DNA of 64,000 bases. Origin: Bacilli bacterium (lineage in GTDB: Bacteria > Bacillota_I > Bacilli_A > RFN20 > CAG-826). Within the stretch, counting starts at the first letter, position 1. Each line of letters opens with the position of its first letter. The position numbers and the translations under genes were made by a program. Where the stretch lies: the NCBI GenBank assembly GCA_045631885.1, contig JAZQVN010000039.1, forward strand, positions 12,608 through 76,607, in the 5' to 3' direction. Shown here piece after piece: positions 678-46,663 of this stretch. The notes beneath the pieces are model-generated. The model was not told the DNA's origin and did not search any database. It saw nothing but the letters and a program-made list of their open reading frames with translations.

Positions 678-693
678 TGTGATTTGAATCACG
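678..693. promoter_or_regulatory. CRP/FNR-type box TGTGA-N6-TCACG overlapping the start of the Crp/Fnr gene.
   Basis: The sequence tgtgatttgaatcacg matches the consensus TGTGA-N6-TCACA in 9 of 10 positions. It lies immediately 5' of, and overlapping, the candidate starts at 684 and 696. Confidence 0.5.
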
Positions 694-1280
694 CTATGGG
701 AAATATATTAGAAACACTAACAAAAGAAGAAAAAAATAAGATTGAAACTAGATATCTTCAAAAAGGAGAAATCTTATTTTCTGAAGGTGATACTTGCGAG
801 CACATTGGTATCCTTGCTTCAGGAGAAATAGATATTGTCTCTTATTCATTCGGAGGTAAGGAAATTATCTATAACCATTTAACCGATGGAATGATGTTCG
901 GTAATAACTTAATCTTCTCGAGTGATCCAACATATAAAGGCTCAATTATTGCAAAAAAGGCGTCAAAACTGGCTTTAATTAATAAAAATCAATTAGTTTA
1001 CCTATTAAAAAACAACGATAACTTTTTAACTTCGTTTCTAAATTATGAGTCTGATTTGGCAAAAGAATTAAATGGCAAAATTAAGTTATTATCACTCGAT
1101 AACGCAGAAGAAAGATTCTTCTATTACCTTCACTCACAAGGTGATGAGATTCATTATCAATCAATCACAGAATTAGCCTCTCGTTTATATCTTCAAAGAG
1201 AGACGTTATCTAGACTGATATCTAAACTAATTAAAGAGAATAAGATTATCAAAGATAAACACAGCATTAAGCGAAAATAA
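684..1280 (+). CDS. Crp/Fnr-family transcriptional regulator (cNMP-binding domain plus C-terminal HTH).
   Basis: There is a cNMP-binding-like N-terminal half (FSEGDTCEHIGILASGEIDIV) and a C-terminal HTH (ITELASRLYLQRETLSRLISKLIKE). The track start is TTG at 684; ATG at 696 is the more likely start. No SD is present. Confidence 0.7.
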   Translation: MNHAMGNILETLTKEEKNKIETRYLQKGEILFSEGDTCEHIGILASGEIDIVSYSFGGKEIIYNHLTDGMMFGNNLIFSSDPTYKGSIIAKKASKLALINKNQLVYLLKNNDNFLTSFLNYESDLAKELNGKIKLLSLDNAEERFFYYLHSQGDEIHYQSITELASRLYLQRETLSRLISKLIKENKIIKDKHSIKRK

Positions 1281-1317: not shown

Positions 1318-2022
1318 TTAGTCGTCGTCTTTGTCTTCATTGCCTCTAAAGAAATGAACAACACCATAATAAATAGGGATGGTGAGGAATAGGACCCATA
1401 ATGGGTGGAATAAATTGAAGTTAAACACCCACACGCATAGTAATAAATATAGGAAAGCGATAAAGACTGGGTAAGCAAAGATATTTGGATTTCTATTTCT
1501 AATTGCCGCAGGGATAGTTGGTAATAACGGGATTAATAAGAATAATACCCATGCTTGACCCCATAACCCTAAAAGAGAGCCTAATAATATATAAGAAATA
1601 ACTGTTCCGAAGACTGTGATAACGGAAACTAAAGCATCCACTCTATGTTTTTTACCGATTTCACGATAAGAAATATCTTTTGTACCTTCTTCATCTGTGA
1701 TCCTAATGCCTTTTTCAGAGACGTGAACTTCTTCGCCATCTTCACTATAGACGTGAACCCCATCATCATCTAAAACGACATGATCTTCTTTCTCTTCTTT
1801 TGGTGCATCTTGTTTTGGGGAAGATAAGCCCACTAATTCATCTAAAGAGATGTTATAGATTTTGGCTAATTCAATAAGGTTATCTGTGTCTGGAGAAGCT
1901 TCTCCTCTTTCCCATTTGCTAATAGCTTGACGGGAGACTTGTAATTTATCCGCTAACTCTTCTTGTGAGTAGCCGTGTTCTTTTCTCAATTCCGCGAGGC
2001 GGTTTGCTAATTCGATTGTCAT
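1318..2022 (-). CDS. XRE-family HTH protein with a C-terminal multi-TM membrane domain.
   Basis: The N-terminus LRKEHGYSQEELADKLQVSRQAISKWERG is a classic XRE HTH. The C-terminal half is hydrophobic, with 3-4 predicted TM helices. Confidence 0.7.
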   Translation of the reverse strand: MTIELANRLAELRKEHGYSQEELADKLQVSRQAISKWERGEASPDTDNLIELAKIYNISLDELVGLSSPKQDAPKEEKEDHVVLDDDGVHVYSEDGEEVHVSEKGIRITDEEGTKDISYREIGKKHRVDALVSVITVFGTVISYILLGSLLGLWGQAWVLFLLIPLLPTIPAAIRNRNPNIFAYPVFIAFLYLLLCVWVFNFNLFHPLWVLFLTIPIYYGVVHFFRGNEDKDDD

Positions 2023-2832: not shown

Positions 2833-5349
2833 ATGAAAAAGAAATCTTTAATTCCTTTATTGCTGTGCACAGCATTCCTTTTTGCTTGTAGTACAGGTTC
2901 AAACAATGGCTCCAATGGTGGAGGTGGAAGTGGAGGCACCTCAGGAGATGGTAGTGGCGGACAAAGCCAAGACGGTGACGGAGGTTCCGGTGGAGGCTCT
3001 GGCGAAGGTCAGGGTGGTTCCGGTTCTAGCGAAGGCCAAGGCGGAGGCTCTGGAGAAGGTCAGGGTGGTTCTGGTGGAAGCGGTGGCCAAAGTCAAGGAA
3101 GTGACACTGAACCAGAAGAAACTTTACCAGCGATTGACTATGTCAAAGTTTTCGCGGAATCCGCGAATTATTCCCATGTCTACGCTTGGATTGTAGATAA
3201 CGGCAAAACCACAGAATTAGTCGGTAAATGGCCGGGCACGAATTTGGCTTCATATGATACGACCTGGTTAACATATGATTTTGAAGGATATACCGCGCTT
3301 AATTTCATCTTTAGTAAAGGTGGAAATGGTCAAACCGCAGACTTATCAGTTAGCCATGCAGGATATTATTGGTATCAAAATGGTGAGATTTATACATCTA
3401 AACCAGGTTCATCTTCCGGAGGTGGAAGTAGTGAACCATATACCCCTCCAACCGATATTCCTCAAGGTAATTACGATATAGTGGAATCTGCGGCCACAGT
3501 AGATGATTTACCAGCGGTTAAAAACTATAACAAAGGTAGTATCGTCTCTCCATATACTGGAAGTCGTACTGACTTCAGAGATGAGAGTATTTACTTTACA
3601 ATTACAACGAGATTCTATGATGGTGATAGCTCTAACAACACAAAGTGTTGGGATGGCAGAAATAACAAGAGTGATGACCCAGCTTGGAGAGGTGATTTCA
3701 AAGGCTTAATTCAAAAGATGGATTATATTAAAGCTTTAGGTTTCACCGCGATTTGGATTACTCCAGTTGTGAAGAATGCATCCGGATATGATTATCACGG
3801 ATATCACGCGATTAACTTTAAAGAAGTCGATCCGCGTTATGAATCTGAAGATGTCGCTTTCTTAGATGTTATTAAAGAAGCTCACAAGAGAGATATGAAA
3901 ATTATTCTCGATGTCGTCTTTAACCATACCGGTAACTTTGGCGAAGAAAACTTATTCCCAATGTTCTATTACGATAGTAAAAATAACACGACGATAAATG
4001 GAATGATTCGAAATAAGAACTCTGGATTATTACCAGAAAGTTACGATACAGCGAACAATCAATACAGCATGAGAATTGATGCGATGAAAGGTAGCACTGA
4101 TGCCTATAACATCTACCATCATGAAAAGAACATGTCGTATGAACAATATATCGAACAAACAGGCCAAATGGCGGGTGATTGTGTTGACCTCAATACAGAA
4201 AATCCAACCGTCGCTAACTATTTAATTGATGCCTATGGTGATTTCATCAGATTAGGTGTTGATGCCTTTAGAATTGACACGATGAAGCACATCTCTCGTT
4301 TGACGTTCAATAACTATATTTGGCCAGGTTTATATAAGATTGCAGAAAAATGTGGAAATAATTATTTCCATATGTTTGGTGAAGTCTGTACAAGAGTGAG
4401 AGAAGTGTGGAACCACGGACAAGCTTGTGACTCCGCGCCATTCTATACTTGGAAAGAAAGTAAGACTTATGCTTGGGGAACTCGTTCAGTTAATGAAAAA
4501 TCCACATTAGATAACTGGAATGATAATGCAAATACCAATCAACCAACAAGCGACAATGCAAAGTTAAGAAATGGCTTACAATACCATAACCCAGATACTT
4601 CTAAATCAAGTGGCTGTTCCGTCATCGACTTCCCAATGCACTGGAACTTCCAATACGCAAGAGATGCTTTTGGTGTCGCGGTAGGTAATGACCAATATTA
4701 TAACGACGCGACATATAATGTTACCTATGTTGACTCTCACGACTATGGACCAGACGGTATTGAAAAAGTGAGATACAATATGGGCACAAGTGCGTGGAAA
4801 GAGAATATGTCATTAATCTTCACCTTTAGAGGTGTTCCATGTATCTATTATGGTTCCGAAGTTGAATTCCAAGCTGGAAAAACAATTGATGAAGGACCAA
4901 ACTTAGCCTTAAAAGATTCTGGTAGAGCGTACTTTGGCGATTATTTAGAAGGTACAGTAAATGCGACTGGATTTGGTAGTTATACCGCTTCTGGTAAAGT
5001 CCAAGAAACTTTAAATAGCACCTTAAGTAAACATCTCCAAATGTTAAATAAGATTAGATTAAAAGTCCCAGCCTTAAGAAGAGGACAATACACCACAAGT
5101 GGTTGCTCTGGCAGTATGTCTTATATTAGAAGATATACAGTCGGTAGTGTTGACTCTTTAGCTTGCGTTACCGTTTCTGGTAGTTCAACATTCTCTAATT
5201 TACCAAGCGGAACATATGTTGACTTAGTTTCTGGAAATAAAACCACAGTCAATAGTGGAACCCTTAATGCGAGTGTTTCTGGACAAGGTAACGTTGCTAT
5301 TTATGTCTTAGAAAATAGTTCAACTGGAACATTAAGTAAAATCAGTTAA
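2833..5349 (+). CDS. Lipoprotein alpha-amylase, GH13 family, with a Gly/Ser-rich linker and a putative starch-binding module.
   Basis: The lipobox is LLLCTAFLFAC-STGS. A low-complexity GGSGEGQGG repeat linker follows. GH13 signatures are present: DVVFNHTG, GVDAFRIDTMKHI, FGEVC and YVDSHD. An N-terminal beta-sandwich region precedes the catalytic domain. Confidence 0.85.
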   Translation: MKKKSLIPLLLCTAFLFACSTGSNNGSNGGGGSGGTSGDGSGGQSQDGDGGSGGGSGEGQGGSGSSEGQGGGSGEGQGGSGGSGGQSQGSDTEPEETLPAIDYVKVFAESANYSHVYAWIVDNGKTTELVGKWPGTNLASYDTTWLTYDFEGYTALNFIFSKGGNGQTADLSVSHAGYYWYQNGEIYTSKPGSSSGGGSSEPYTPPTDIPQGNYDIVESAATVDDLPAVKNYNKGSIVSPYTGSRTDFRDESIYFTITTRFYDGDSSNNTKCWDGRNNKSDDPAWRGDFKGLIQKMDYIKALGFTAIWITPVVKNASGYDYHGYHAINFKEVDPRYESEDVAFLDVIKEAHKRDMKIILDVVFNHTGNFGEENLFPMFYYDSKNNTTINGMIRNKNSGLLPESYDTANNQYSMRIDAMKGSTDAYNIYHHEKNMSYEQYIEQTGQMAGDCVDLNTENPTVANYLIDAYGDFIRLGVDAFRIDTMKHISRLTFNNYIWPGLYKIAEKCGNNYFHMFGEVCTRVREVWNHGQACDSAPFYTWKESKTYAWGTRSVNEKSTLDNWNDNANTNQPTSDNAKLRNGLQYHNPDTSKSSGCSVIDFPMHWNFQYARDAFGVAVGNDQYYNDATYNVTYVDSHDYGPDGIEKVRYNMGTSAWKENMSLIFTFRGVPCIYYGSEVEFQAGKTIDEGPNLALKDSGRAYFGDYLEGTVNATGFGSYTASGKVQETLNSTLSKHLQMLNKIRLKVPALRRGQYTTSGCSGSMSYIRRYTVGSVDSLACVTVSGSSTFSNLPSGTYVDLVSGNKTTVNSGTLNASVSGQGNVAIYVLENSSTGTLSKIS
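2905..3108 (+). repeat. Imperfect tandem nucleotide repeats encoding the GGSGEGQGG linker.
   Basis: The units gaaggtcagggtggttc(c/t)gg and ggtggaggctctgg recur several times. This low-complexity region is prone to slippage. Confidence 0.6.
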
Positions 5350-5412: not shown

Positions 5413-6417
5413 TTAGAAATCCGGATGCATTGTCGCAAGCATCACTGCTTTAATCGTGTGCATACGATTTTCGGCTTCATCAAAGACTTTGGATTGAGGT
5501 CCTTCAAAGACATCTTCAGTGACTTCTAAACCGTTTAAACCAAACTTGTTATAAACTTCTAAACCAACTTTAGTTTCTAAGTTATGGAAGCTTGGTAAGC
5601 AGTGGAGGAAGATGGCTTTTGGATGTGCCATTTCCATGACGGCTTTATTGACTTGATATGGTTTTAATAAGTTGATGCGTTCCGCCCAGACTTCATCTGG
5701 TTCACCCATTGAGACCCAGACATCTGTGGTGATGACATCGCAATCACTAACACCTTCTTTAACGTCTTCTGTGAATGTTAATTTCGCGCCTGTCTCTTTC
5801 GCGATTTCTAGACATCTATTTCTTAATTCTTCATTTGGCCATAATTCTTTTGGTCCGACCATGCGGTAATCTAAACCTAACTTAGCACTTGTCACTAAAT
5901 AGGAATTACCCATGTTATATCTGCCATCCCCAAGATAAGCCATCTTGATTCCTTTAAGACGGCCTTTTTCTTCTAAGATAGTCATAAAATCAGCGAGCAT
6001 TTGAGTTGGGTGATATTGGTTAGTTAAACCGTTCCATGTTGGAACACCAGAATATTCAGCGAGACATTCCACTGTGGATTGTTCATAGCCGCGATATTCG
6101 ATGCCATCAAACATTCTACCTAACACTCTCGCGGTGTCTTTGATACTTTCTTTTTTACCCATTTGAGAACCGCTTGATCCAATATAGACTGCATTCATGC
6201 CTAAATCTGCCGCGGCAACTTCAAATGAACATCTAGTTCTAGTGGAATCTTTTTCAAATAATAAGACAACATTCTTACCTTCTAAATGACGGTGAGCGAT
6301 TCCTGCTTTCTTTTGTCTTTTGAGTTCTCTCGCTAATTCAATCAAATATAAGATTTCTTCAGGAGTATAATCTAACAAAGTTAAAAATCTTGTTTGGGCT
6401 AATTTCATATTAATCAA
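5413..6417 (-). CDS. arcB: Ornithine carbamoyltransferase.
   Basis: It has the STRTRCSFE carbamoyl-phosphate-binding motif and the HCLP motif. It overlaps the upstream arcA by 8 nt, which implies translational coupling. Confidence 0.9.
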
Positions 6418-7627
6418 CGTCCTCTCTTTCTAAAGGCATACACATACATCTTGGTCCCCCTCTTCCACGTGATAATTCACTAGATGGGATTTCAAATACT
6501 TCAACACCATAACTTCTTAATATTGCATTCGTGGTGTCATTTCTTTCATAAGCAATCACTTTTCCCGGAGCGATAGCGATGGTATTACTACCATCAGACC
6601 ATTGTTCTCTATCCGCGGTCACTCGATCTTCTCCTCCACATGGGATGAGAATGACATCTTGATGAATGTATTTTTCTAAAATAGTTTTTAATTCTTCTTT
6701 ACTCTCATTAACAATTAATTTGTTATCACCTTTTTGAATTTCAATAATTCTTAATGATTCATAACATTCTTTATGAATAGTGAATTTATTGAAGTCAACT
6801 TGAGTAAATATCGTATCTAAGTGCATAAAGGTTCTCGCTTTAGGAATTGATAAGACGACGATATTTTCAAAAGTTGTTTGTTCATTAAAGAAGATATTCT
6901 TCGCAAGTCTTTCTATCGCAATAGGAGTGGTTCTTTGAGAGGCTCCAATGATGAGAGTTTTATGGTTTAAAACCATAATATCTCCACCTTCGATGCTCTT
7001 AACTTCGTTTCTGTTATAGAAGAGCTTGTTATTTTTATAAACAGGATGATATTTGAAGATATATTCTCCGAATATTGTTTCTCTACTTCTCGTCACTGAG
7101 AACATGCTGTTAAGGGAGATACCATCACCAATCGAGGCAAATGGATCTCTCTGAAAATATAAATTTGGCATTGGGTCTGTCGCGAACTGCTTATCATCAA
7201 TTAAGTCTCTTAATGTTCTAATTTTCCAATCTGGTAAATCGGTTTTCTTAATACCAGCGATAGCCTTTAAGACCATTGTTCTCGTATCTTTAATTTCATT
7301 AAGATATTCTAAAACGACTTCGGATAATGTCGTGGAGTTGATATTTGCGTCTTTAACAAATTGTTGAATAAACTCTTTTTTCACTTCTTCACTTATATCA
7401 AGTGCTTCAACGACTAAATCGACGAGATAGACTACTTTCACTCCGTTATCGATAAATGTTTTCGCGAAAGTTTGATGTTCTTTCTTCGCTAGTGGAAGCC
7501 ATGGGATATCATCGAAAAGCAAATCGTCTAAATGTTTAGGTGTTAAATTATGAATCTCATTTCCTGGTTCGTGAATTAAAACGGTTTTAAGTTTACCGAT
7601 TTCACTATAAACGTTGATTTTACTCAT
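6410..7627 (-). CDS. arcA: Arginine deiminase.
   Basis: The N-terminus [22 protein letters not shown] and the overall length and composition are typical of arginine deiminase. The catalytic Cys lies near the C-terminus (GGPRCMCMP). Confidence 0.85.
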
Positions 7628-8717
7628 GAGTTACCCCCTCTGTGACTAGTTCTTTATTTTTCTTTTCCATTTTCGCGTCATAAACGCCAGATAAGATGAT
7701 TGATAATGTAATGATTATGCCTCCAGCAACAACGTTCCAAGAGAATTCTTCCATATGGAAGATGATACTTGTTAATGTTGCAACCACCGCGGACATTGGC
7801 ATTAAGACCGCGCAAGTAACCGCGGAAACGTTTTTAATTGAAATAGTTCTTAATACCCAACACACTGCGGTGCAAGCGACACCTAAGAAGATGAGAATTA
7901 AGATATGTTGCCACTGCCAAGAGAAGTGGAGATTGTGTTCAAATGGAATGGCATAAGCAAAGCTCATAACTGTCAAAACGATTAATTGGATAAAAACATA
8001 AACCCAAGAATCTTTGTTTTTGGCAAATACTTTAGTAAAGGCAATATCAATACCAAAGAATAGACCACCGATACAAGATAAGATATCTCCACTAGTTGGA
8101 GAAGAGAATAACGCGGTGAAATCCCAACCATTTCCACATAAGACGAATGAACCAAATACACACGCGAGTGATGCGATAATTGTCACTAGTGTTGGTTTTT
8201 CTCTCACTAATAAAAACATACAGATTGGAACCGCGATACAAGAGAAACTTTCTAAGAAAGTATTTTTTGCTGGAGTAGTGGAATCTAAACCGATGAATTG
8301 CAATAAGTATGCTGCACCTAAAATAAGACCCGCAAGGATACAAATCCAATAGGATTGTTTAACTTCTTCTTTTGATTTGCCTAAAAGAAGTAAGAATAAA
8401 ACGAGTAATAATAAGGCGGCGATACCTCTGATCATCGTATCTAATCCTGGAACGACTGATAAACTAGCGACAAAAGCTAAACAAGAGATGACGCCGATTG
8501 GAACGCATACCCAATAACTCTTTGATAATTTCTTAAAACCACCTGTCACCAAGATGACGAAAAACATCGCGAAACAAGAAAGTAAACCTCTTATCGCAAC
8601 TAATAGGGCTGGAGAGTATAAGTTGTTGTCAAAAAGATATTTGCTGATAACTGGTGCAATACCCCAGAGAATGACAACTAATATCAACGCTAATAATGAC
8701 AAAATTTTCTTGCTCAT
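7620..8717 (-). CDS. DMT/EamA-like 10-TM transporter, co-oriented with and overlapping arcA.
   Basis: The protein is highly hydrophobic with about 10 TM helices. It has a duplicated 5-TM architecture and an N-terminal segment resembling EamA. It is not a canonical ArcD (APC family). Confidence 0.5.
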   Translation of the reverse strand: MSKKILSLLALILVVILWGIAPVISKYLFDNNLYSPALLVAIRGLLSCFAMFFVILVTGGFKKLSKSYWVCVPIGVISCLAFVASLSVVPGLDTMIRGIAALLLLVLFLLLLGKSKEEVKQSYWICILAGLILGAAYLLQFIGLDSTTPAKNTFLESFSCIAVPICMFLLVREKPTLVTIIASLACVFGSFVLCGNGWDFTALFSSPTSGDILSCIGGLFFGIDIAFTKVFAKNKDSWVYVFIQLIVLTVMSFAYAIPFEHNLHFSWQWQHILILIFLGVACTAVCWVLRTISIKNVSAVTCAVLMPMSAVVATLTSIIFHMEEFSWNVVAGGIIITLSIILSGVYDAKMEKKNKELVTEGVTHE

Positions 8718-8880
8718 AATGAAAAGCCATATATTAGTTTACACTAATAGGATTTTTTGACCACCCCCAAATTAATATTTCGTTCTTTTAAGAAGAAAAC
8801 TCTTCTATTTACTCTTATAAAAAATAATGGTGACTATGTTAAGTTTGGTTTACAATCGATATATTATGATTAATTTTTTG

Positions 8881-8909
8881 TTGACATAGTCTTATATATA
8901 TTTAAAATG
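8881..8909 (+). promoter_or_regulatory. Candidate sigma70-type promoter, TTGACA-16-TAAAAT.
   Basis: The -35 element ttgaca is at 8881-8886 and the -10 element taaaat at 8903-8908. Confidence 0.4.
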
Positions 8910-8911
8910 AT

Positions 8912-8935
8912 AACGATTGCAACTAACGATTGCAG
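8912..8935. promoter_or_regulatory. Direct repeat AACGATTGCA x2 (spaced 4 nt) between the promoter and the RBS of HTH-glmM.
   Basis: The sequence aacgattgca-acta-acgattgca is a candidate operator. Each copy contains the palindromic core TTGCAA. Confidence 0.4.
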
Positions 8936-8945
8936 GAGGAAAATT

Positions 8946-10583
8946 ATGACATTAGGTGAAAAGATTGCTCACTTACGAATAGTGAATGGCATGTCACAAG
9001 AAAAACTGGCGGGCTTATTAAATGTCTCTCGTCAATCAATCTCCAAATGGGAAAGCGATGAATCTCAACCACAAATTGAAAACATCTTAGAAATCGCTCA
9101 ATTATTCCAAATTACTACTGATGAATTATTAAACGATCAAATCGTTATTCATAGAGGTAAGAAATTAATCCCGAGTATCGGAGAAGATATTAAAACTAAA
9201 TATTTCGGCACAGATGGCTTTAGAGGCGAAGCCAATGTCGTCTTGACCGCAGATCATGCTTATAAAATCGGTAGATTCTTAGGTTGGTTCTATGGTAACC
9301 CAGAATATAACTGCCAAAAACCAGGTTATAGACCAAAGGTTGTTATTGGTAAAGATACACGTAGATCATCATATATGCTTGAATACGCGGTGGCTGCTGG
9401 TTTAGCGGCTTCTGGCGCGGATGTCTCATTACTTCACGTTACTACAACCCCATCAGTCTCTTATATCGTGAGACAAGATGCTTTCGACTGTGGTGTCATG
9501 ATTACCGCATCTCATAATCCTTTCTATGATAATGGTATTAAAGTTATCAATGGTGAAGGTGAAAAATTAGAAGATAGCGTCGCAGTTCTTATCGAAGCTT
9601 ATCTCGATGGTGAATTAAAGAAATTAGGTATAGAAGGCGATGACTTACCATTCGCCACAAAAGATAGAATTGGTAGTATCACTGATTACTCTTCAGGTAG
9701 AAATAGATACGTTGCTTATTTAATCTCCTTAGCCAAACATTCAATGAAGGGATTAAGAATTGGCTTAGACTCCGCCAATGGTGCATCCTGGATGATTGCG
9801 AAAAATGTCTTTGATGCCTTAGGCGCACAAACATATGTTATCAATAATAATCCAGACGGCTTAAATATCAATGTCAACGCTGGTAGCACACATATTGATA
9901 TCTTATGTAAATATGTTAAAGAAAATAATTTAGACTTCGGCTTTGCCTTCGATGGTGACTCTGATAGATGTATCGCTGTTGATGAAAACGGTAAAGAAGT
10001 CGATGGTGATAAAATCATGTACTTATTAGCCCTCAAGTTAAAATCAGAAGGCGCATTAGAAAAAGATACATTAGTCACCACAATTATGTCTAACTCAGGA
10101 TTATTCAAAGCGTGTAAACAAGTTGGCATTAAAACAGTTCAAACTAAAGTTGGTGATAGATTCGTTTATGAAAGAATGCAAAACGAAGGTTATTCCATCG
10201 GTGGAGAACAATCCGGTCATATTATCATTAAGAAATACGCCACAACAGGTGACGGCATCTTAACCGCGATTATGGTTACAGAAGAAATCTTAGAAAGAAA
10301 AGAAAAATTATCTAAGTTAGTCGCTCCTGTTAAATTATTACCACAAAAGTTAAAGAATGTCAGAGTAACCAATAAAGCCGCGGTTATGGATGATGAAGTG
10401 GTCAAAGCGAAATTCCAAGAAGTCAACGAAGAAATCGGTGACAATGGTCGTGCCTTATTAAGACAATCTGGCACAGAACCAGTTGTGAGAATTATGCTTG
10501 AATGTCCAACCATCAAAGAATGTGATGACTATATTGAAAGAATTTATAACGTCATCAAGAAGAGAGGTTACGTCTGTGAATAA
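8946..10583 (+). CDS. glmM: Phosphoglucosamine mutase with an N-terminal XRE-type HTH domain (fusion).
   Basis: The RBS AGGAGG sits upstream of ATG at 8946. The HTH is LRIVNGMSQEKLAGLLNVSRQSISKWESD. The phosphohexomutase motifs are TASHNP (phosphoserine loop), FDGDSDR (metal-binding) and GGEQSGH (sugar loop, GlmM-type). Confidence 0.8.
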   Translation: MTLGEKIAHLRIVNGMSQEKLAGLLNVSRQSISKWESDESQPQIENILEIAQLFQITTDELLNDQIVIHRGKKLIPSIGEDIKTKYFGTDGFRGEANVVLTADHAYKIGRFLGWFYGNPEYNCQKPGYRPKVVIGKDTRRSSYMLEYAVAAGLAASGADVSLLHVTTTPSVSYIVRQDAFDCGVMITASHNPFYDNGIKVINGEGEKLEDSVAVLIEAYLDGELKKLGIEGDDLPFATKDRIGSITDYSSGRNRYVAYLISLAKHSMKGLRIGLDSANGASWMIAKNVFDALGAQTYVINNNPDGLNINVNAGSTHIDILCKYVKENNLDFGFAFDGDSDRCIAVDENGKEVDGDKIMYLLALKLKSEGALEKDTLVTTIMSNSGLFKACKQVGIKTVQTKVGDRFVYERMQNEGYSIGGEQSGHIIIKKYATTGDGILTAIMVTEEILERKEKLSKLVAPVKLLPQKLKNVRVTNKAAVMDDEVVKAKFQEVNEEIGDNGRALLRQSGTEPVVRIMLECPTIKECDDYIERIYNVIKKRGYVCE

Positions 10584-11244
10584 GTTAAATATTAAGACCA
10601 AGGAATTATTTGAAGAATGTCCAATTCCATTTCTTAAAGAAGCGTTCGAGAACGCTGAATATCCTTGGCAAATCCTTCCTCAAATTAAAGAAATAATTAA
10701 AAAACAAATCGAATTAGGTGTTCCTGGATATACAGAAATTGAACCAGGTGTCTACGTCGGAGAGAATGTTAAAATCGCTAAAACAGCGACAATCGAAGCT
10801 CCAGTTATCATCGGTAGCGGTACAGAACTTAGACCAGGTGCTTACCTTAGAGGTAATGTCATCATCGGTGAAAACTGTGTCGTTGGTAACTCATCAGAAT
10901 TAAAGAATTCTATTCTCTTATATCATGTGCAAGTGCCACATTATAACTATGTTGGTGACTCCATCTTAGGTAGCCATTCTCATATGGGTGCGGGATCCAT
11001 CTGTTCTAATTTAAAATCAGATGGTAAGAATATCTTCGTCCATGGTGATAGAGAATATGAAACAGGTTTAAGAAAGATTGGCGCGATTTTAGGGGACCAC
11101 GCGGATATCGGATGTGGTAGTGTTCTTAACCCAGGCACAATCATCGGCAAGAACACCCAAGTTTATCCTCTCAGTATGTTAAGAGGATGTTTCCCAGAAA
11201 ACTCCATTGTTAAATCACAAAACAATGTTGTTGATAAAAAATAA
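10576..11244 (+). CDS. Hexapeptide-repeat (left-handed beta-helix) acetyltransferase, GlmU C-terminal-like; possible glucosamine-1-P N-acetyltransferase.
   Basis: There are hexapeptide repeats (VYVGENVKIAKTATIEAPVIIGSGTELRPGAYLRGNVIIGENCVVGN). The likely start is GTG at 10576, overlapping the glmM stop. The track ORF from 10498 is an out-of-frame extension inside glmM. Confidence 0.55.
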   Translation: MNKLNIKTKELFEECPIPFLKEAFENAEYPWQILPQIKEIIKKQIELGVPGYTEIEPGVYVGENVKIAKTATIEAPVIIGSGTELRPGAYLRGNVIIGENCVVGNSSELKNSILLYHVQVPHYNYVGDSILGSHSHMGAGSICSNLKSDGKNIFVHGDREYETGLRKIGAILGDHADIGCGSVLNPGTIIGKNTQVYPLSMLRGCFPENSIVKSQNNVVDKK

Positions 11245-11263
11245 GAAAGAAGGAAAAACAAAT

Positions 11264-11986
11264 ATGAAAGTCGTCGTCGGAAACGAACAAGAAATCAGCA
11301 GATTAATCGCTGAAGAATTTATCAAACAAGTTAACGCTAAACCAAACAGTGTCCTCGGTTTAGCCACAGGTACGTCCCCATTAGGTGTTTACGCTAACTT
11401 AGTCAAAGCGAACAAAGAAGGAAGAGTCTCCTTCAAAGATGTCGCTACATTCAACTTAGATGAATACATCGGTTTAGAAGGTACACACAATCAATCTTAT
11501 CGTTACTTCATGAATGACAATTTATTCAATCATATCGATATCGATAAGAATAGAACACACGTCTTAAAAGGTGTTGGTGATTATGTTGCTTATATGAACC
11601 AATATGATGATGAAATCGCTTCCTTTGGTGGTATCGATTTACAAATCTTAGGTATCGGTAGTGATGGCCACATCGCCTTCAACGAACCAGGCACACCATT
11701 TGATTCTTTAACACATATCGCTGACTTAACAGAAAGCACCATTAGAGATAACTCCCGTTTATTTAATGACATTTCTGAAGTTCCTACTAAAGCAGTTACA
11801 ATGGGCTTAAAGAGCATCATGAACGCGAGAAAAATCGTCTTAATCGCGACAGGCAAAAATAAAGCCAAAGCTATTAAAGATTTATTAACTGGTCCAAAGA
11901 CAGAAGATGTCCCATGCTCCATCCTCCAAGATCACCCAGATTGCACAATCTATGTGGATGAAGATGCATATAGCTTAGTTAAATAA
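11264..11986 (+). CDS. nagB: Glucosamine-6-phosphate deaminase.
   Basis: The motifs MKVVV...GLATGTSP, FNLDEYIGL and GIGSDGHIAFNEPG are present. ATG at 11264 is the likely start. Confidence 0.85.
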   Translation: MKVVVGNEQEISRLIAEEFIKQVNAKPNSVLGLATGTSPLGVYANLVKANKEGRVSFKDVATFNLDEYIGLEGTHNQSYRYFMNDNLFNHIDIDKNRTHVLKGVGDYVAYMNQYDDEIASFGGIDLQILGIGSDGHIAFNEPGTPFDSLTHIADLTESTIRDNSRLFNDISEVPTKAVTMGLKSIMNARKIVLIATGKNKAKAIKDLLTGPKTEDVPCSILQDHPDCTIYVDEDAYSLVK

Positions 11987-12021
11987 GTAAAGTCCTTCCA
12001 ATATAAAAGAGGTCCGAATTA

Positions 12022-12675
12022 TTAACGGATCTCTTTTTCTAACTCTCTCATCGTTATATTTTTAATGTCTTTATTTTCACTTACTCTTCTACACAGTTCT
12101 TCTAACTTATCGTAAGTGTTATTAACTTCAAAATCATAAGCGTGAGAGACAAAGACAAATAGTTTTGCGTTAGGGTCATTAACAAATTCATCAAATCGAT
12201 TAAGTGCATCATTAACATCTAAAGATGTTATTTTGACATGATGTATATCAGGGAATTGATAAGATGTATCGATTTCAGATATACGGATAACTTTGATATT
12301 GTGAAGATGTTTAATAACATCAATACATCTTTCTTCTAAATCATGAAATGGAAAAGCAAATGTATTTATTTCTTGATGGAAGATATTTTCTAAGTTAAGG
12401 ATATCTTGTCCGACTTCATAAACGATATGTTCCCCTGAACACATGGTGAGATGTGGGTGAGTTAATGAATGACTCGCAACTTCATGACCTTTATATAAAT
12501 TGACATTATCTTTTAAAGTTAATCTTTCAATCGGTTTATCATTTAAATACCAAACGAAATCATCTAATCCGGAATTGAGATTAAATGTTCCTTTGATGTG
12601 ATATTTATTGAAAATATCTATGACTTTATTGTCATAGATAGTTCCATCATCAATTGAGAAGATAAAATATTTCAT
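12022..12675 (-). CDS. Polysaccharide deacetylase (NodB homology, CE4 family).
   Basis: The FSIDDG motif with Asp-Asp and the His-His motif HSLTHPHL are present. Confidence 0.75.
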   Translation of the reverse strand: MKYFIFSIDDGTIYDNKVIDIFNKYHIKGTFNLNSGLDDFVWYLNDKPIERLTLKDNVNLYKGHEVASHSLTHPHLTMCSGEHIVYEVGQDILNLENIFHQEINTFAFPFHDLEERCIDVIKHLHNIKVIRISEIDTSYQFPDIHHVKITSLDVNDALNRFDEFVNDPNAKLFVFVSHAYDFEVNNTYDKLEELCRRVSENKDIKNITMRELEKEIR

Positions 12676-45244: not shown

Positions 45245-46663
45245 ATGTCGAGTTTATTTAGTTGGGTTTGGGACCTATTATATGGAATCAGCAAATCAAT
45301 GTACGCGATTATTGATAATCTTTTGAAGTGCGCGAATATGTTATGTGGCATTGTGCCAATCACTTACGAAGGAGCGGATACGGATTTCTTATCTTTCCTA
45401 TTAAGGAATAAGAATATCGCTTTCGCCTTTGCGGGTTCAGTTCTCATTTCTATCGTTTTAGTCTTACTATTTTCGGTCATCATGATTATGAGAACTATCG
45501 CAAGCGAGAAAGTGGAAAAAACTCCAACGCAAATCGCTGTGCAAGTCGCAAAAACTCTTCTCACATTCTTATTTATCCCCGCTGCGATGGTCGTCTTAAT
45601 TTCATTCACTAACGCACTAATGCAAATTCTCTATCAAGCCACATCGGCTAATTCACCAGATGGTATTGGTAGATTCTTAGCTGGTGCCTTTGGTCAAAAC
45701 GCTTTAAAGAGTGGCGTTGATCCAGACTTCTATCTCGATGAGAATTTTAAATACTGGAGCACATCAAATGTCAAAGGCTATTTAGATTTATCTGATTACG
45801 ATTATTTCTTCAGCTGGTTAGCTAGCATTGTCATCTTAATCGCTATCGGTATCACATTACTCATGTTCGTTGACCGTGCGTTTGCAATCGTTATTCTCTT
45901 TATCTTTGCTCCTATTTCATTATCAACATCTATCGTTGATGATGGGGCAAGGTTCAAATTATGGAGAGAGCAATTCCTAGTTAAATTCTTAACAGGATAT
46001 GGCTGTATTATCGGTATTAACATCTATGCTTTAGTTGTCGCTGCAGTAACCGCAGATGGATTAGTCTTCTTCCCAGATAGCGTTATTTTAAATAACTTAA
46101 TGAAGATTTTAATCATCGGTGGTGGTGGCGTATCACTACAAAAATTAATGGCCTTAGTTGGTAACTTAATCGCTCAAGGAGCGGGTAGTAATGAAATGAG
46201 AGATAGCGCGATGGCGGCAGGAACCTTTTCTCGAGCTGCGATGGGCGCTGCGATGATGCCATTTAAAGCTGCAAAAGGCTTATTCAGTGCGACAAGAAGT
46301 GCGATTAACTTCGGTAATGACGTCTCTCACCATGGTGCAGGTACCGCAATCGGTCGTCGACTCGGTTTTAAAACTGAAAGAGATTACGCGATTGAAGAAG
46401 GTAGATTTAAACGCGGTGGCGGAGCAGGCGCAGGAAACCATATGGCTGGTGTCGCTAACAGTATGTTAGGTGCTGGTAATAAAAACGCTGCTAACGCAAT
46501 TAATAACAATAATGGCGGAAATAATGGCGGCGGTAATAACAATAATGGCGGCGGCGGTAATAACAATAAAGGTGGAAGTGGTAATAACCATCCAAATCCA
46601 GGCAGTAATATGATTAGTAACGCTGTCAATAGTGCTTTAAATAAGGGAGGAGATAAGAAATGA
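45245..46663 (+). CDS. Polytopic membrane protein, VirB6/TrbL-like candidate, with a C-terminal Gly/Asn-rich low-complexity tail.
   Basis: It has an AGGAGA RBS and about 6-7 TM helices. The tail is NNNNGGNNGGGNNNNGGGGNNNKGGSGNN. Confidence 0.5.
   Translation: MSSLFSWVWDLLYGISKSMYAIIDNLLKCANMLCGIVPITYEGADTDFLSFLLRNKNIAFAFAGSVLISIVLVLLFSVIMIMRTIASEKVEKTPTQIAVQVAKTLLTFLFIPAAMVVLISFTNALMQILYQATSANSPDGIGRFLAGAFGQNALKSGVDPDFYLDENFKYWSTSNVKGYLDLSDYDYFFSWLASIVILIAIGITLLMFVDRAFAIVILFIFAPISLSTSIVDDGARFKLWREQFLVKFLTGYGCIIGINIYALVVAAVTADGLVFFPDSVILNNLMKILIIGGGGVSLQKLMALVGNLIAQGAGSNEMRDSAMAAGTFSRAAMGAAMMPFKAAKGLFSATRSAINFGNDVSHHGAGTAIGRRLGFKTERDYAIEEGRFKRGGGAGAGNHMAGVANSMLGAGNKNAANAINNNNGGNNGGGNNNNGGGGNNNKGGSGNNHPNPGSNMISNAVNSALNKGGDKK
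46486..46600 (+). repeat. Simple-sequence tandem repeat (aataacaataatggcggcgg-like units) encoding the N/G tail.
   Basis: The units aataacaataatggcggaaataatggcggcggtaataacaataatggcggcggcggtaataacaataaaggtgg are seen directly. The length is potentially variable by slippage. Confidence 0.55.

Follow-up and report, generated by a model that had tools for sequence, protein, structure and literature searches.

We analysed 64,000 nucleotides (nt) of DNA from a Bacilli bacterium (contig JAZQVN010000039.1, positions 12,608 to 76,607 of the forward strand). This whole stretch is referred to below as the window, and positions are counted from its first letter. It contains a gene on the plus strand (8946-10583) whose predicted product of 545 amino acids (aa) consists of an XRE/Cro-type helix-turn-helix (HTH) domain (residues 1-65), a flexible linker and a full phosphoglucosamine mutase, GlmM. 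An earlier reading made from the letters alone (the sequence-only reading) had described this fusion, and had proposed that repeats located between the promoter of the gene and its ribosome binding site (RBS) serve as an autoregulatory operator for the fused HTH. The gene and its upstream region show the following features.

8837-8854, no strand assigned: distal palindrome TGTTAAGTTTGGTTTACA, which is TGYAAA-N6-TTTRCA with one mismatch, centred some 70 bp before the predicted transcription start.
8881-8908, plus strand: sigma-70-type promoter, with TTGACA at 8881-8886, a 16-nt spacer and TAAAAT at 8903-8908.
8911-8934, no strand assigned: proximal candidate operator with two copies of TAACGATTGCA, which can be written as TTGCA-N8-TTGCA (8917-8934) and as GCAAC-N5-ATTGC (8919-8933).
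8934-8939, plus strand: RBS AGGAGG, 6 nt before the ATG at 8946; the start is backed by the conserved MT[IL]GEK.
8946-9140, plus strand: HTH of the XRE/Cro-C1 type, residues 1-65 (HTH_3, E 2.7e-13), with recognition helix VSRQSISKWE.
9141-9197, plus strand: linker, residues 66-84, predicted to be flexible (predicted local distance difference test, pLDDT, about 42-62), with no start codon at the canonical GlmM N-terminus.
9198-10583, plus strand: GlmM moiety with four domains and intact catalytic loops (Pfam, NCBIfam; match to B. subtilis GlmM 7ojr with E 6e-125).

According to the open reading frame listing, one continuous frame runs from 8907 to 10583, and no stop codon or frameshift separates the HTH from the mutase. 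We set the start of the protein at the ATG at 8946, because AGGAGG precedes it at the appropriate place and the MT[IL]GEK N-terminus is found at the same point in all homologues. The database copy of the protein, P0391 (558 aa), was called from the ATG at 8907; it is 13 codons too long and begins inside the -10/operator region.

The window was compared with related loci, which carry L-numbers below; for the main set, taken from contigs of one genome per species, the best 80 loci were retained. All of the best 120 protein clusters formed at 90% identity (82-97% identity to the window protein) carried both the HTH and the PGM domains, and a second search, started from a clostridial member, yielded a further 120 clusters with HTH and PGM domains (Acutalibacteraceae). 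Among the best 80 species-level loci, 57 matched from query residues 1-9, i.e. with the HTH included. Twelve of these 57 came from rumen metagenome-assembled genomes labelled Bacilli or Erysipelotrichaceae (70-82% identity) and represent the window's clade. The remaining fused loci were Clostridia (57-65% identity), namely Acutalibacteraceae, Oscillospiraceae, Ruminococcus, Christensenellaceae and one member of Lachnospiraceae. When proteins were clustered at 50% identity, the fused ones fell under unfused GlmM representatives that were 58-59% identical to them; clustering at this level is uninformative on how widely the fusion is distributed, since its members are hidden behind unfused representatives. 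Hundreds of assemblies that are independent of one another, from various studies and hosts, showed the same architecture. The HTH-GlmM fusion is real and conserved, not an artefact, and it is old and common in gut and rumen Firmicutes of two classes; in total it was found in more than 240 protein clusters and at least 57 species-level genomes.

The sequence-only reading had called a DNA-binding metabolic enzyme of this kind unusual. This holds for the literature, as our searches found no publication on an HTH-GlmM fusion, on a GlmM with an XRE domain or on the operator motif described below. It does not hold for nature, where gut and rumen Firmicutes carry it in abundance. The fused proteins, where they were named in the sources, were labelled merely "phosphoglucosamine mutase".

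The HTH_3 family (PF01381) of Pfam was matched at residues 13-61 with E 2.7e-13 (50.2 bits against a cut-off of 23). In the AlphaFold2 model of the protein (mean pLDDT 81) the HTH had five helices (3-13, 18-25, 29-36, 44-53 and 58-62), and pLDDT was 82-93 over residues 1-62. The nearest solved relatives of the HTH were ICEBs1 ImmR and the P22 C2 repressor (7t8i, 1adr, 3jxb). The HTH consensus over 56 aligned fused proteins was MTIGEKI..LR....SQE.LA..L.VSRQS[VI]SKWE...PQIDK...L..LF....D.LL. Within the window's clade the ratio of nonsynonymous to synonymous substitution rates (dN/dS) of the HTH was 0.07-0.35; judged by this ratio, the domain is under purifying selection throughout the clade. The linker was 14-25 aa long and variable in sequence across the 56 proteins. 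No conserved methionine or RBS was found at the HTH/GlmM junction of these aligned proteins, and the canonical M(G)KYFGTDG was replaced by xKYFGTDG. We ruled out an internal start yielding free GlmM, because the conserved methionine is missing at the usual GlmM start and the junction has no conserved RBS.

The mutase part matched the Pfam families PGM_PMM_I-IV at residues 85-535 (E 8.5e-36 to 1.7e-16) and the NCBIfam equivalog model of glmM, TIGR01455 (496.4 bits; cut-off 447.55). All four catalytic loops, TASHNP (S189), DGDSDR (D336/338/340), GEQSGH (421-425) and RQSGTEPVVR (506-515), were invariant in 34 fused homologues from both clades. The AlphaFold2 model of the GlmM body was compared with 7ojr, 3pdk and 6gyz, and the target-normalised TM-score was 0.84-0.93 (ranks 1-5); identity to the GlmM proteins of B. 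subtilis, B. anthracis and S. aureus was 44-47%. None of the structure matches was a solved or described GlmM with an N-terminal DNA-binding domain. Where dS was measurable, dN/dS was approximately 0.05-0.14 for the GlmM part vs 0.07-0.35 for the HTH. No second glmM was found within the 64-kb window. The motifs indicate that the enzyme moiety is an ordinary GlmM of the housekeeping type, probably competent to convert glucosamine-6-phosphate (GlcN-6-P) to glucosamine-1-phosphate (GlcN-1-P). Both parts of the fusion, as the sequence-only reading had described it, were recovered: the frame is uninterrupted, homologues share the HTH and PGM architecture, the N-terminal extension is present across hundreds of them, and the GlmM is complete in its four domains and motifs and scores above the equivalog cut-off.

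The promoter of the fused gene matched the sigma-70 consensus at 11 of 12 positions, which was the best match in 8650-12100, and transcription is predicted to start near 8915. Downstream of the -10 hexamer, AACGATTGCA occurred exactly at 8912-8921 and at 8925-8934; the repeat extends to the 11 nt of TAACGATTGCA at 8911-8921 and 8924-8934, with a 13-bp period. The proximal site would span approximately the first 20 nt (+1 to +20) of the predicted transcript, and it borders directly on the RBS. The repeat does lie between promoter and RBS, as had been stated before, since the -10 hexamer ends at 8908 and the RBS occupies 8934-8939. Taken alone, the decamer was no commoner in the window than expected (5 matches vs 6.2, with up to one mismatch allowed), and a third exact copy was present at 45883 on the minus strand, in sequence that reads as coding. 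The paired cores TTGCA-N8-TTGCA occurred once in 64 kb, at this site (0.19 expected). A chance origin of the repeat was ruled out by the paired cores together with the comparative data, not by the decamer count.

The repeat in the window fits a direct and an inverted description equally well, because TTGCAA reads the same on both strands and either description places the cores 13 bp apart. The window site, GCAAC-TAACG-ATTGC, is one mismatch away from the conserved GCAAC-N5-GTTGC. In the sister species L002-L005 a perfect GCAAC-N5-GTTGC was found at the orthologous position, just before the RBS. In L102, whose protein is 97% identical, the TTGCA cores were kept and the neighbouring intergenic bases were changed. 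We therefore do not regard the tandem direct repeat as a separate type of operator but read it as a palindrome, on account of the perfect inverted repeats of L002-L005 and the self-complementary core. Of the "tandem repeats" described earlier, the exact copies are present, with a length of 11 nt, but the functional unit appears to be the inverted repeat. A CcpA-binding catabolite-responsive element (cre) was also considered, as ATGATAACGATTGCA differs from WTGNAANCGNWNNCW at one position; the fit is limited to the first copy, the TG...CG frame is not conserved in L002-L005, and the idea was dropped.

The palindrome was found by aligning the upstream regions of the fused genes. Its consensus was tTTGCAACY-N3-RGTTGCAAAA, with cores starting 13 bp apart. 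We detected GCAAC-N5-GTTGC (up to one mismatch, up to 320 bp upstream) at 47 of 56 fused and at 0 of 19 unfused glmM genes (Fisher p = 2.4e-11), while its background elsewhere was 0.018 per kb over 846 kb of locus sequence. In 42 clostridial loci with approximately 60% protein identity, the ten arm positions carried 1.5-2.5 bits, and the spacer and flanks approximately 0. On this profile, the conservation of the arms alone is a footprint of selection. It is a stronger argument than co-occurrence, because the fused genes share ancestry. The clostridial loci have in addition a degenerate second palindrome, TTCAAnG-N4-GTTGS, about 21 bp downstream of the main one and abutting the -35 hexamer.

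The distal palindrome has a consensus that shares the TG(C/T)AA half-site with the main palindrome, with a spacer longer by one base. At up to one mismatch it was present in 26 of 56 fused and 0 of 19 unfused loci. In Clostridia it was located 73-77 bp upstream of the main palindrome in 19 of 40 loci, compared with 0.8% of background windows, and this distance equals roughly seven turns of the helix. Of 17 loci in the window's clade, the window included, 14 had a recognisable distal site (up to one mismatch, or by reading for L102-L105). The matches in L007, L010 and L011 had two mismatches, and in L102 the arms of the site were conserved and its spacer was not. Since the distal palindrome and the fusion co-occur in two classes, the palindrome probably belongs to the same system. 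We rejected TnrA/GlnR, Rex or CRP-type identities of the distal palindrome, as their spacings do not fit.

The same palindrome was found in front of XRE genes that do not encode GlmM. One of these is located in the window.

1318-2022, minus strand: XRE-HTH membrane protein of 234 aa (HTH_3, 1.7e-21); its hydrophobic C-terminal half reads as transmembrane.
2100-2114, no strand assigned: perfect palindrome copy GCAACTTTTGGTTGC, 78 bp upstream of the divergent gene 1318-2022(-).

This is the sole perfect copy of the palindrome in the window, and it lies in a divergent intergenic region shared with the gene of a 181-aa membrane protein (2223-2768). The recognition helix of the 1318-2022 product is VSRQAISKWE, and its HTH is 47% identical to the fused HTH over 62 aa. 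Metagenomic orthologues of this gene keep the motif. The product may be a membrane-tethered autoregulator which shares operator specificity with HTH-GlmM, and cross-talk between the two is possible. Relatives of this product, sought in metagenomes, included XRE genes of several kinds. In all, non-GlmM XRE genes with helix 3 SRQA[VI]SKWE (1318-2022 of the window, L081-84 and L086) had GCAAC-N5-GTTGC with 0-1 mismatch at 60-130 bp upstream of their own start, and the motif was not present upstream of XRE genes with other recognition helices (L088/89, L096-L101). These genes provide support that is independent of GlmM, and they argue that an HTH of the SRQxxSKWE type reads this palindrome. In L006 (2431-2524) the fused GlmM has VSRQTINKWE, with TGTAA-N8-TTACA at both operator positions, and in L095 (about 930-1070) an XRE gene has SRQAIGKWE, with the symmetric variant GCTAC-N5-GTAGC. 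Helix and operator possibly co-vary in these two single cases. The proposal that the repeat is an autoregulatory operator of the fused HTH is thus strongly backed by comparative evidence, i.e. the perfect sites of L002-L005, the 47 of 56 fused vs 0 of 19 unfused loci and the XRE genes with the same helix.

We constructed a neighbour-joining tree of the mutase part. Nearly all fused genes formed one group inside the clostridial GlmMs, and the window's clade was nested within the clostridial fused genes, which suggests that the fused operon was horizontally transferred into the window's lineage. The unfused genes of L055, L058 and L059 were interspersed among the fused ones and had neither palindrome upstream; where the HTH was lost, the sites were lost as well. 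In L059 (5700-5830) the unfused GlmM begins with MTTGEKTSALHQPTGAAKYFGTDG, which reads MTTGEKTSAL...KYFGTDG and retains the first HTH codons. From this remnant it is clear that L059 lost its HTH through an internal deletion. The upstream operators of L059 have decayed to a single GGTTGC half-site.

Two genes follow the fused glmM on the same strand.

10576-11244, plus strand: left-handed beta-helix acetyltransferase (Hexapep 1.8e-19; TIGR03992 positions 211-391, 8.5e-45).
11264-11986, plus strand: nagB, glucosamine-6-phosphate deaminase, third gene of the putative operon (TIGR00502, 274 bits vs a cut-off of 237).

The Pfam and NCBIfam matches agree with the earlier description of an overlapping hexapeptide acetyltransferase gene followed by nagB. 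The acetyltransferase resembles the GlcN-1-P acetyltransferase part, i.e. the C-terminal half, of archaeal-type GlmU. The gene starts with GTG and shares 8 nt with the end of glmM, an overlap that suggests translational coupling. An acetyltransferase gene came next after approximately 50 of 57 fused glmM genes and also after some unfused ones; therefore the pairing is older than the fusion. The third place was taken by nagB in roughly half of the fused loci, and by glmS in L023 and L051, where only 12-20 nt separate it from the acetyltransferase gene and it forms part of the HTH-glmM operon. A glmS gene was visible in three fused loci, and in none of them did it have a glmS ribozyme: L002 (1210-1213), L023 (8287-8307) and L051 (8260-8273). 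The unfused locus L064 (8187-8353) had a match to the glmS ribozyme RF00234 before glmS (63.8 bits). These very small numbers suggest that protein-based control replaces the glmS ribozyme in fused loci. No Rfam family, the glmS ribozyme RF00234 included, was matched in the window.

The gene upstream of the fused glmM varied between loci. We rejected a separate upstream regulator gene, as the neighbours vary among loci and no split HTH gene stands beside unfused glmM. In the window, an arginine deiminase cluster is divergent from HTH-glmM (5413-8717(-)): ornithine carbamoyltransferase (5413-6417), arginine deiminase (6410-7627) and an EamA-family transporter (7620-8717). In relatives with 86-88% identical HTH-GlmM the upstream neighbour is a gene of the UDP-glucose/GDP-mannose dehydrogenase family, not the EamA transporter. 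In L103 (1-479) the product of the dehydrogenase family had a faint HTH_3 match; the proximal operator of this locus was unrecognisable and the distal one recognisable. Further to the left, the window encodes a Crp/Fnr-type regulator (684-1280(+)), with a cyclic nucleotide (cNMP)-binding domain and HTH_Crp_2, and a predicted lipoprotein alpha-amylase of 838 aa (2833-5349(+)), with a long Gly/Ser-rich low-complexity linker and a CBM26 starch-binding module.

We consider it probable that HTH-GlmM is a bifunctional enzyme-repressor, a "trigger enzyme", which autoregulates glmM, the GlcN-1-P acetyltransferase-like gene and nagB; its binding and repression are what we infer from the sequences. Solved bacterial GlmM proteins (3PDK, 7OJR) dimerise through domain 1, and the GlmM body of the fusion would be expected to dimerise in the same way. 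Two HTH domains on flexible tethers of about 20 aa would then bind TG(C/T)AA half-sites 13 bp apart, in palindromes around the protein's own promoter. Occupancy should repress the operon, because the proximal site lies between the -10 hexamer and the RBS and the distal one about 70 bp upstream of the start. The bound proximal site would block transcription of all three genes, which would amount to negative autoregulation, and the distal site could stabilise a DNA loop. Long flexible tethers would also explain why N5 and N6 spacings are tolerated and why the symmetry of the window site is imperfect.

Several observations weigh against autoregulation of this kind. The fused loci share ancestry, so the 47 of 56 vs 0 of 19 are not independent events. 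The proximal site of the window deviates at a highly conserved arm position (ATTGC for GTTGC). The proximal palindrome is gone in the clade members L001, L007-L012 and L103-105; autoregulation through it is therefore not shared by all members. In the window, about 80 bp separate the distal from the proximal site, so that the two are out of helical phase. The main palindrome of the clostridial loci is placed farther upstream than the gene-proximal promoter, with the second site at the -35 hexamer, a geometry that would suit activation as well, as by lambda CI at OR2. Finally, the XRE protein 1318-2022, with the same helix and encoded 7 kb away, could occupy the glmM sites or compete for them.

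We propose only tentatively that the trigger enzyme responds to metabolites. Here the occupancy or phospho-state of the active site (GlcN-6-P, GlcN-1-P, glucosamine-1,6-bisphosphate) would set the binding of the HTH pair to a three-operator, loop-forming region. The enzyme would replace the glmS ribozyme as feedback sensor in gut and rumen Firmicutes, and in some species it would control glmS in the same operon. The linker, which is poorly conserved and has low pLDDT, gives no hint of allosteric coupling.

An unlikely alternative, which nevertheless survives best among those considered, is that the protein is a sensor-only paralogue, in which the GlmM body serves solely for ligand binding and dimerisation and another glmM performs the catalysis. 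Many one-component regulators use former enzyme folds. BzdR is a precedent (PMC3602430), and our search for another glmM covered 64 kb of the genome only. The invariant catalytic loops of 34 fused homologues and the TIGR01455 score above the cut-off argue against loss of catalysis, as does the slower evolution of the GlmM part compared with the HTH. Moreover, the fused genes interleave in the tree with unfused, presumably housekeeping glmM genes, and the synteny of glmM and the acetyltransferase gene is the same in both.

It is somewhat less likely still that another XRE protein, e.g. the membrane-anchored product of 1318-2022, reads the palindromes, and that the fused HTH binds elsewhere or has another role. 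The second HTH in the window, with its near-identical helix VSRQAISKWE and the perfect palindrome in front of its gene, speaks for this, and the motif seems to be generic for the HTH subtype. Yet, of all genes, the fused HTH alone was consistently inherited together with the glmM-proximal palindromes in both classes: the upstream neighbours vary, an extra HTH match was found in fused loci only in L024, and HTH loss coincides with site loss.

We give a similarly low probability to a decaying relic, i.e. an operon acquired from Clostridia in which the operator erodes, the HTH is inactive on glmM and the repeat is a recent, functionless 13-bp duplication. The nesting of the window's clade in clostridial fused genes would agree with this, as would the proximal palindrome, imperfect in the window and missing in the clade members named above (L001, L007-L012, L103-105), and the direct identity over 11 nt, which resembles a local duplication. 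However, the HTH is under purifying selection across the clade, the distal palindrome is recognisable in 14 of 17 clade loci including the window, and in L102 the TTGCA cores and the distal arms have stayed the same amid changed intergenic bases. An artefact, in which an XRE gene was joined to glmM by a frameshift, an overlooked stop or a chimeric assembly, is a general possibility in metagenome-derived sequence and nothing more, and it is effectively refuted by the same architecture in hundreds of independent assemblies, the continuous frame and the missing start and RBS at the GlmM N-terminus.

Regarded as a probable enzyme-repressor, HTH-GlmM resembles several known systems. NadR of Salmonella and E. 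coli, a classic trigger enzyme, consists of an XRE-type HTH, a nicotinamide mononucleotide (NMN) adenylyltransferase and a ribosylnicotinamide kinase. Both proteins have an N-terminal HTH of the Cro/C1 type on enzyme domains, active in NadR and probably so in HTH-GlmM, of the pathway that is, or in our case would be, repressed, and a palindromic operator, in our case a candidate one, before pathway genes. NadR uses NAD as corepressor and acts in the NAD pathway, whereas HTH-GlmM belongs to the pathway of UDP-N-acetylglucosamine (UDP-GlcNAc). By Pfam and NCBIfam, no NMN adenylyltransferase or kinase domain was found in HTH-GlmM, which matched PGM/PMM-family and HTH models only. By this domain content HTH-GlmM is not a member of the NadR family, and the resemblance is one of design only. 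All tests of sequence and fold that we applied place it in the GlmM and XRE-HTH families. BirA and PutA are trigger enzymes of the same design class.

BzdR consists of an XRE HTH and a shikimate-kinase-like ligand-sensor domain (PMC3602430). It has an HTH of the same superfamily joined through a linker, but its enzyme-like domain is a sensor, while GlmM keeps all catalytic motifs. RbkR is an archaeal riboflavin kinase and regulator (PMC5397151), which also combines an enzyme and a DNA-binding domain in a pathway regulator; it differs in its DNA-binding domain and in being archaeal. GlmM also has a known second role, in which it inhibits the c-di-AMP cyclase CdaA (PDB titles 7olh/7ojs/9g69). 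The canonical GlmM proteins of Firmicutes (B. subtilis 7OJR, B. anthracis 3PDK, S. aureus 6GYZ) have the same four-domain fold and loops as the fused protein. The fused gene is not located in a cdaA-cdaR-glmM operon but in a putative glmM-acetyltransferase-nagB operon.

The phage-type repressors lambda CI, 434 repressor and P22 C2, as well as ImmR, share with HTH-GlmM a related HTH, palindromes of 15-19 bp, several operators around a promoter and autoregulation, which for HTH-GlmM is predicted. They differ in having their own C-terminal dimerisation and in controlling lysogeny, whereas the partner of the HTH in HTH-GlmM is a metabolic enzyme and its putative target a housekeeping operon. The glmS ribozyme and NagR/NagC are feedback devices at the GlcN-6-P node, as HTH-GlmM would be; a functional analogy is suggested by the glmS genes of fused loci, which have no ribozyme, and that of the unfused locus L064, which has one. 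The ribozyme is RNA-based, NagR/NagC are proteins of the GntR or ROK type, and none of them is itself an enzyme of the pathway.

GlmM stands at the entry to UDP-GlcNAc, from which peptidoglycan and other polymers of the envelope are made. The control known for this node is mainly RNA-based (glmS ribozyme, GlmY/Z) or proceeds via separate repressors. If our interpretation is true, a DNA-binding GlmM would provide direct, protein-level feedback on the synthesis of envelope precursors, which would be new. It would operate in abundant, little-studied Firmicutes of gut and rumen: Acutalibacteraceae, Oscillospiraceae, Ruminococcus and an uncultured Bacilli-like rumen clade. The fusion would extend the short list of XRE-HTH enzyme fusions with a widespread natural example. 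It would also assign TTGCAAC-N5-GTTGCAA to SRQxxSKWE, a very common HTH subtype of Firmicutes for which we found no published operator. Hundreds of database entries named "phosphoglucosamine mutase" conceal what would be the domain of a transcription factor.

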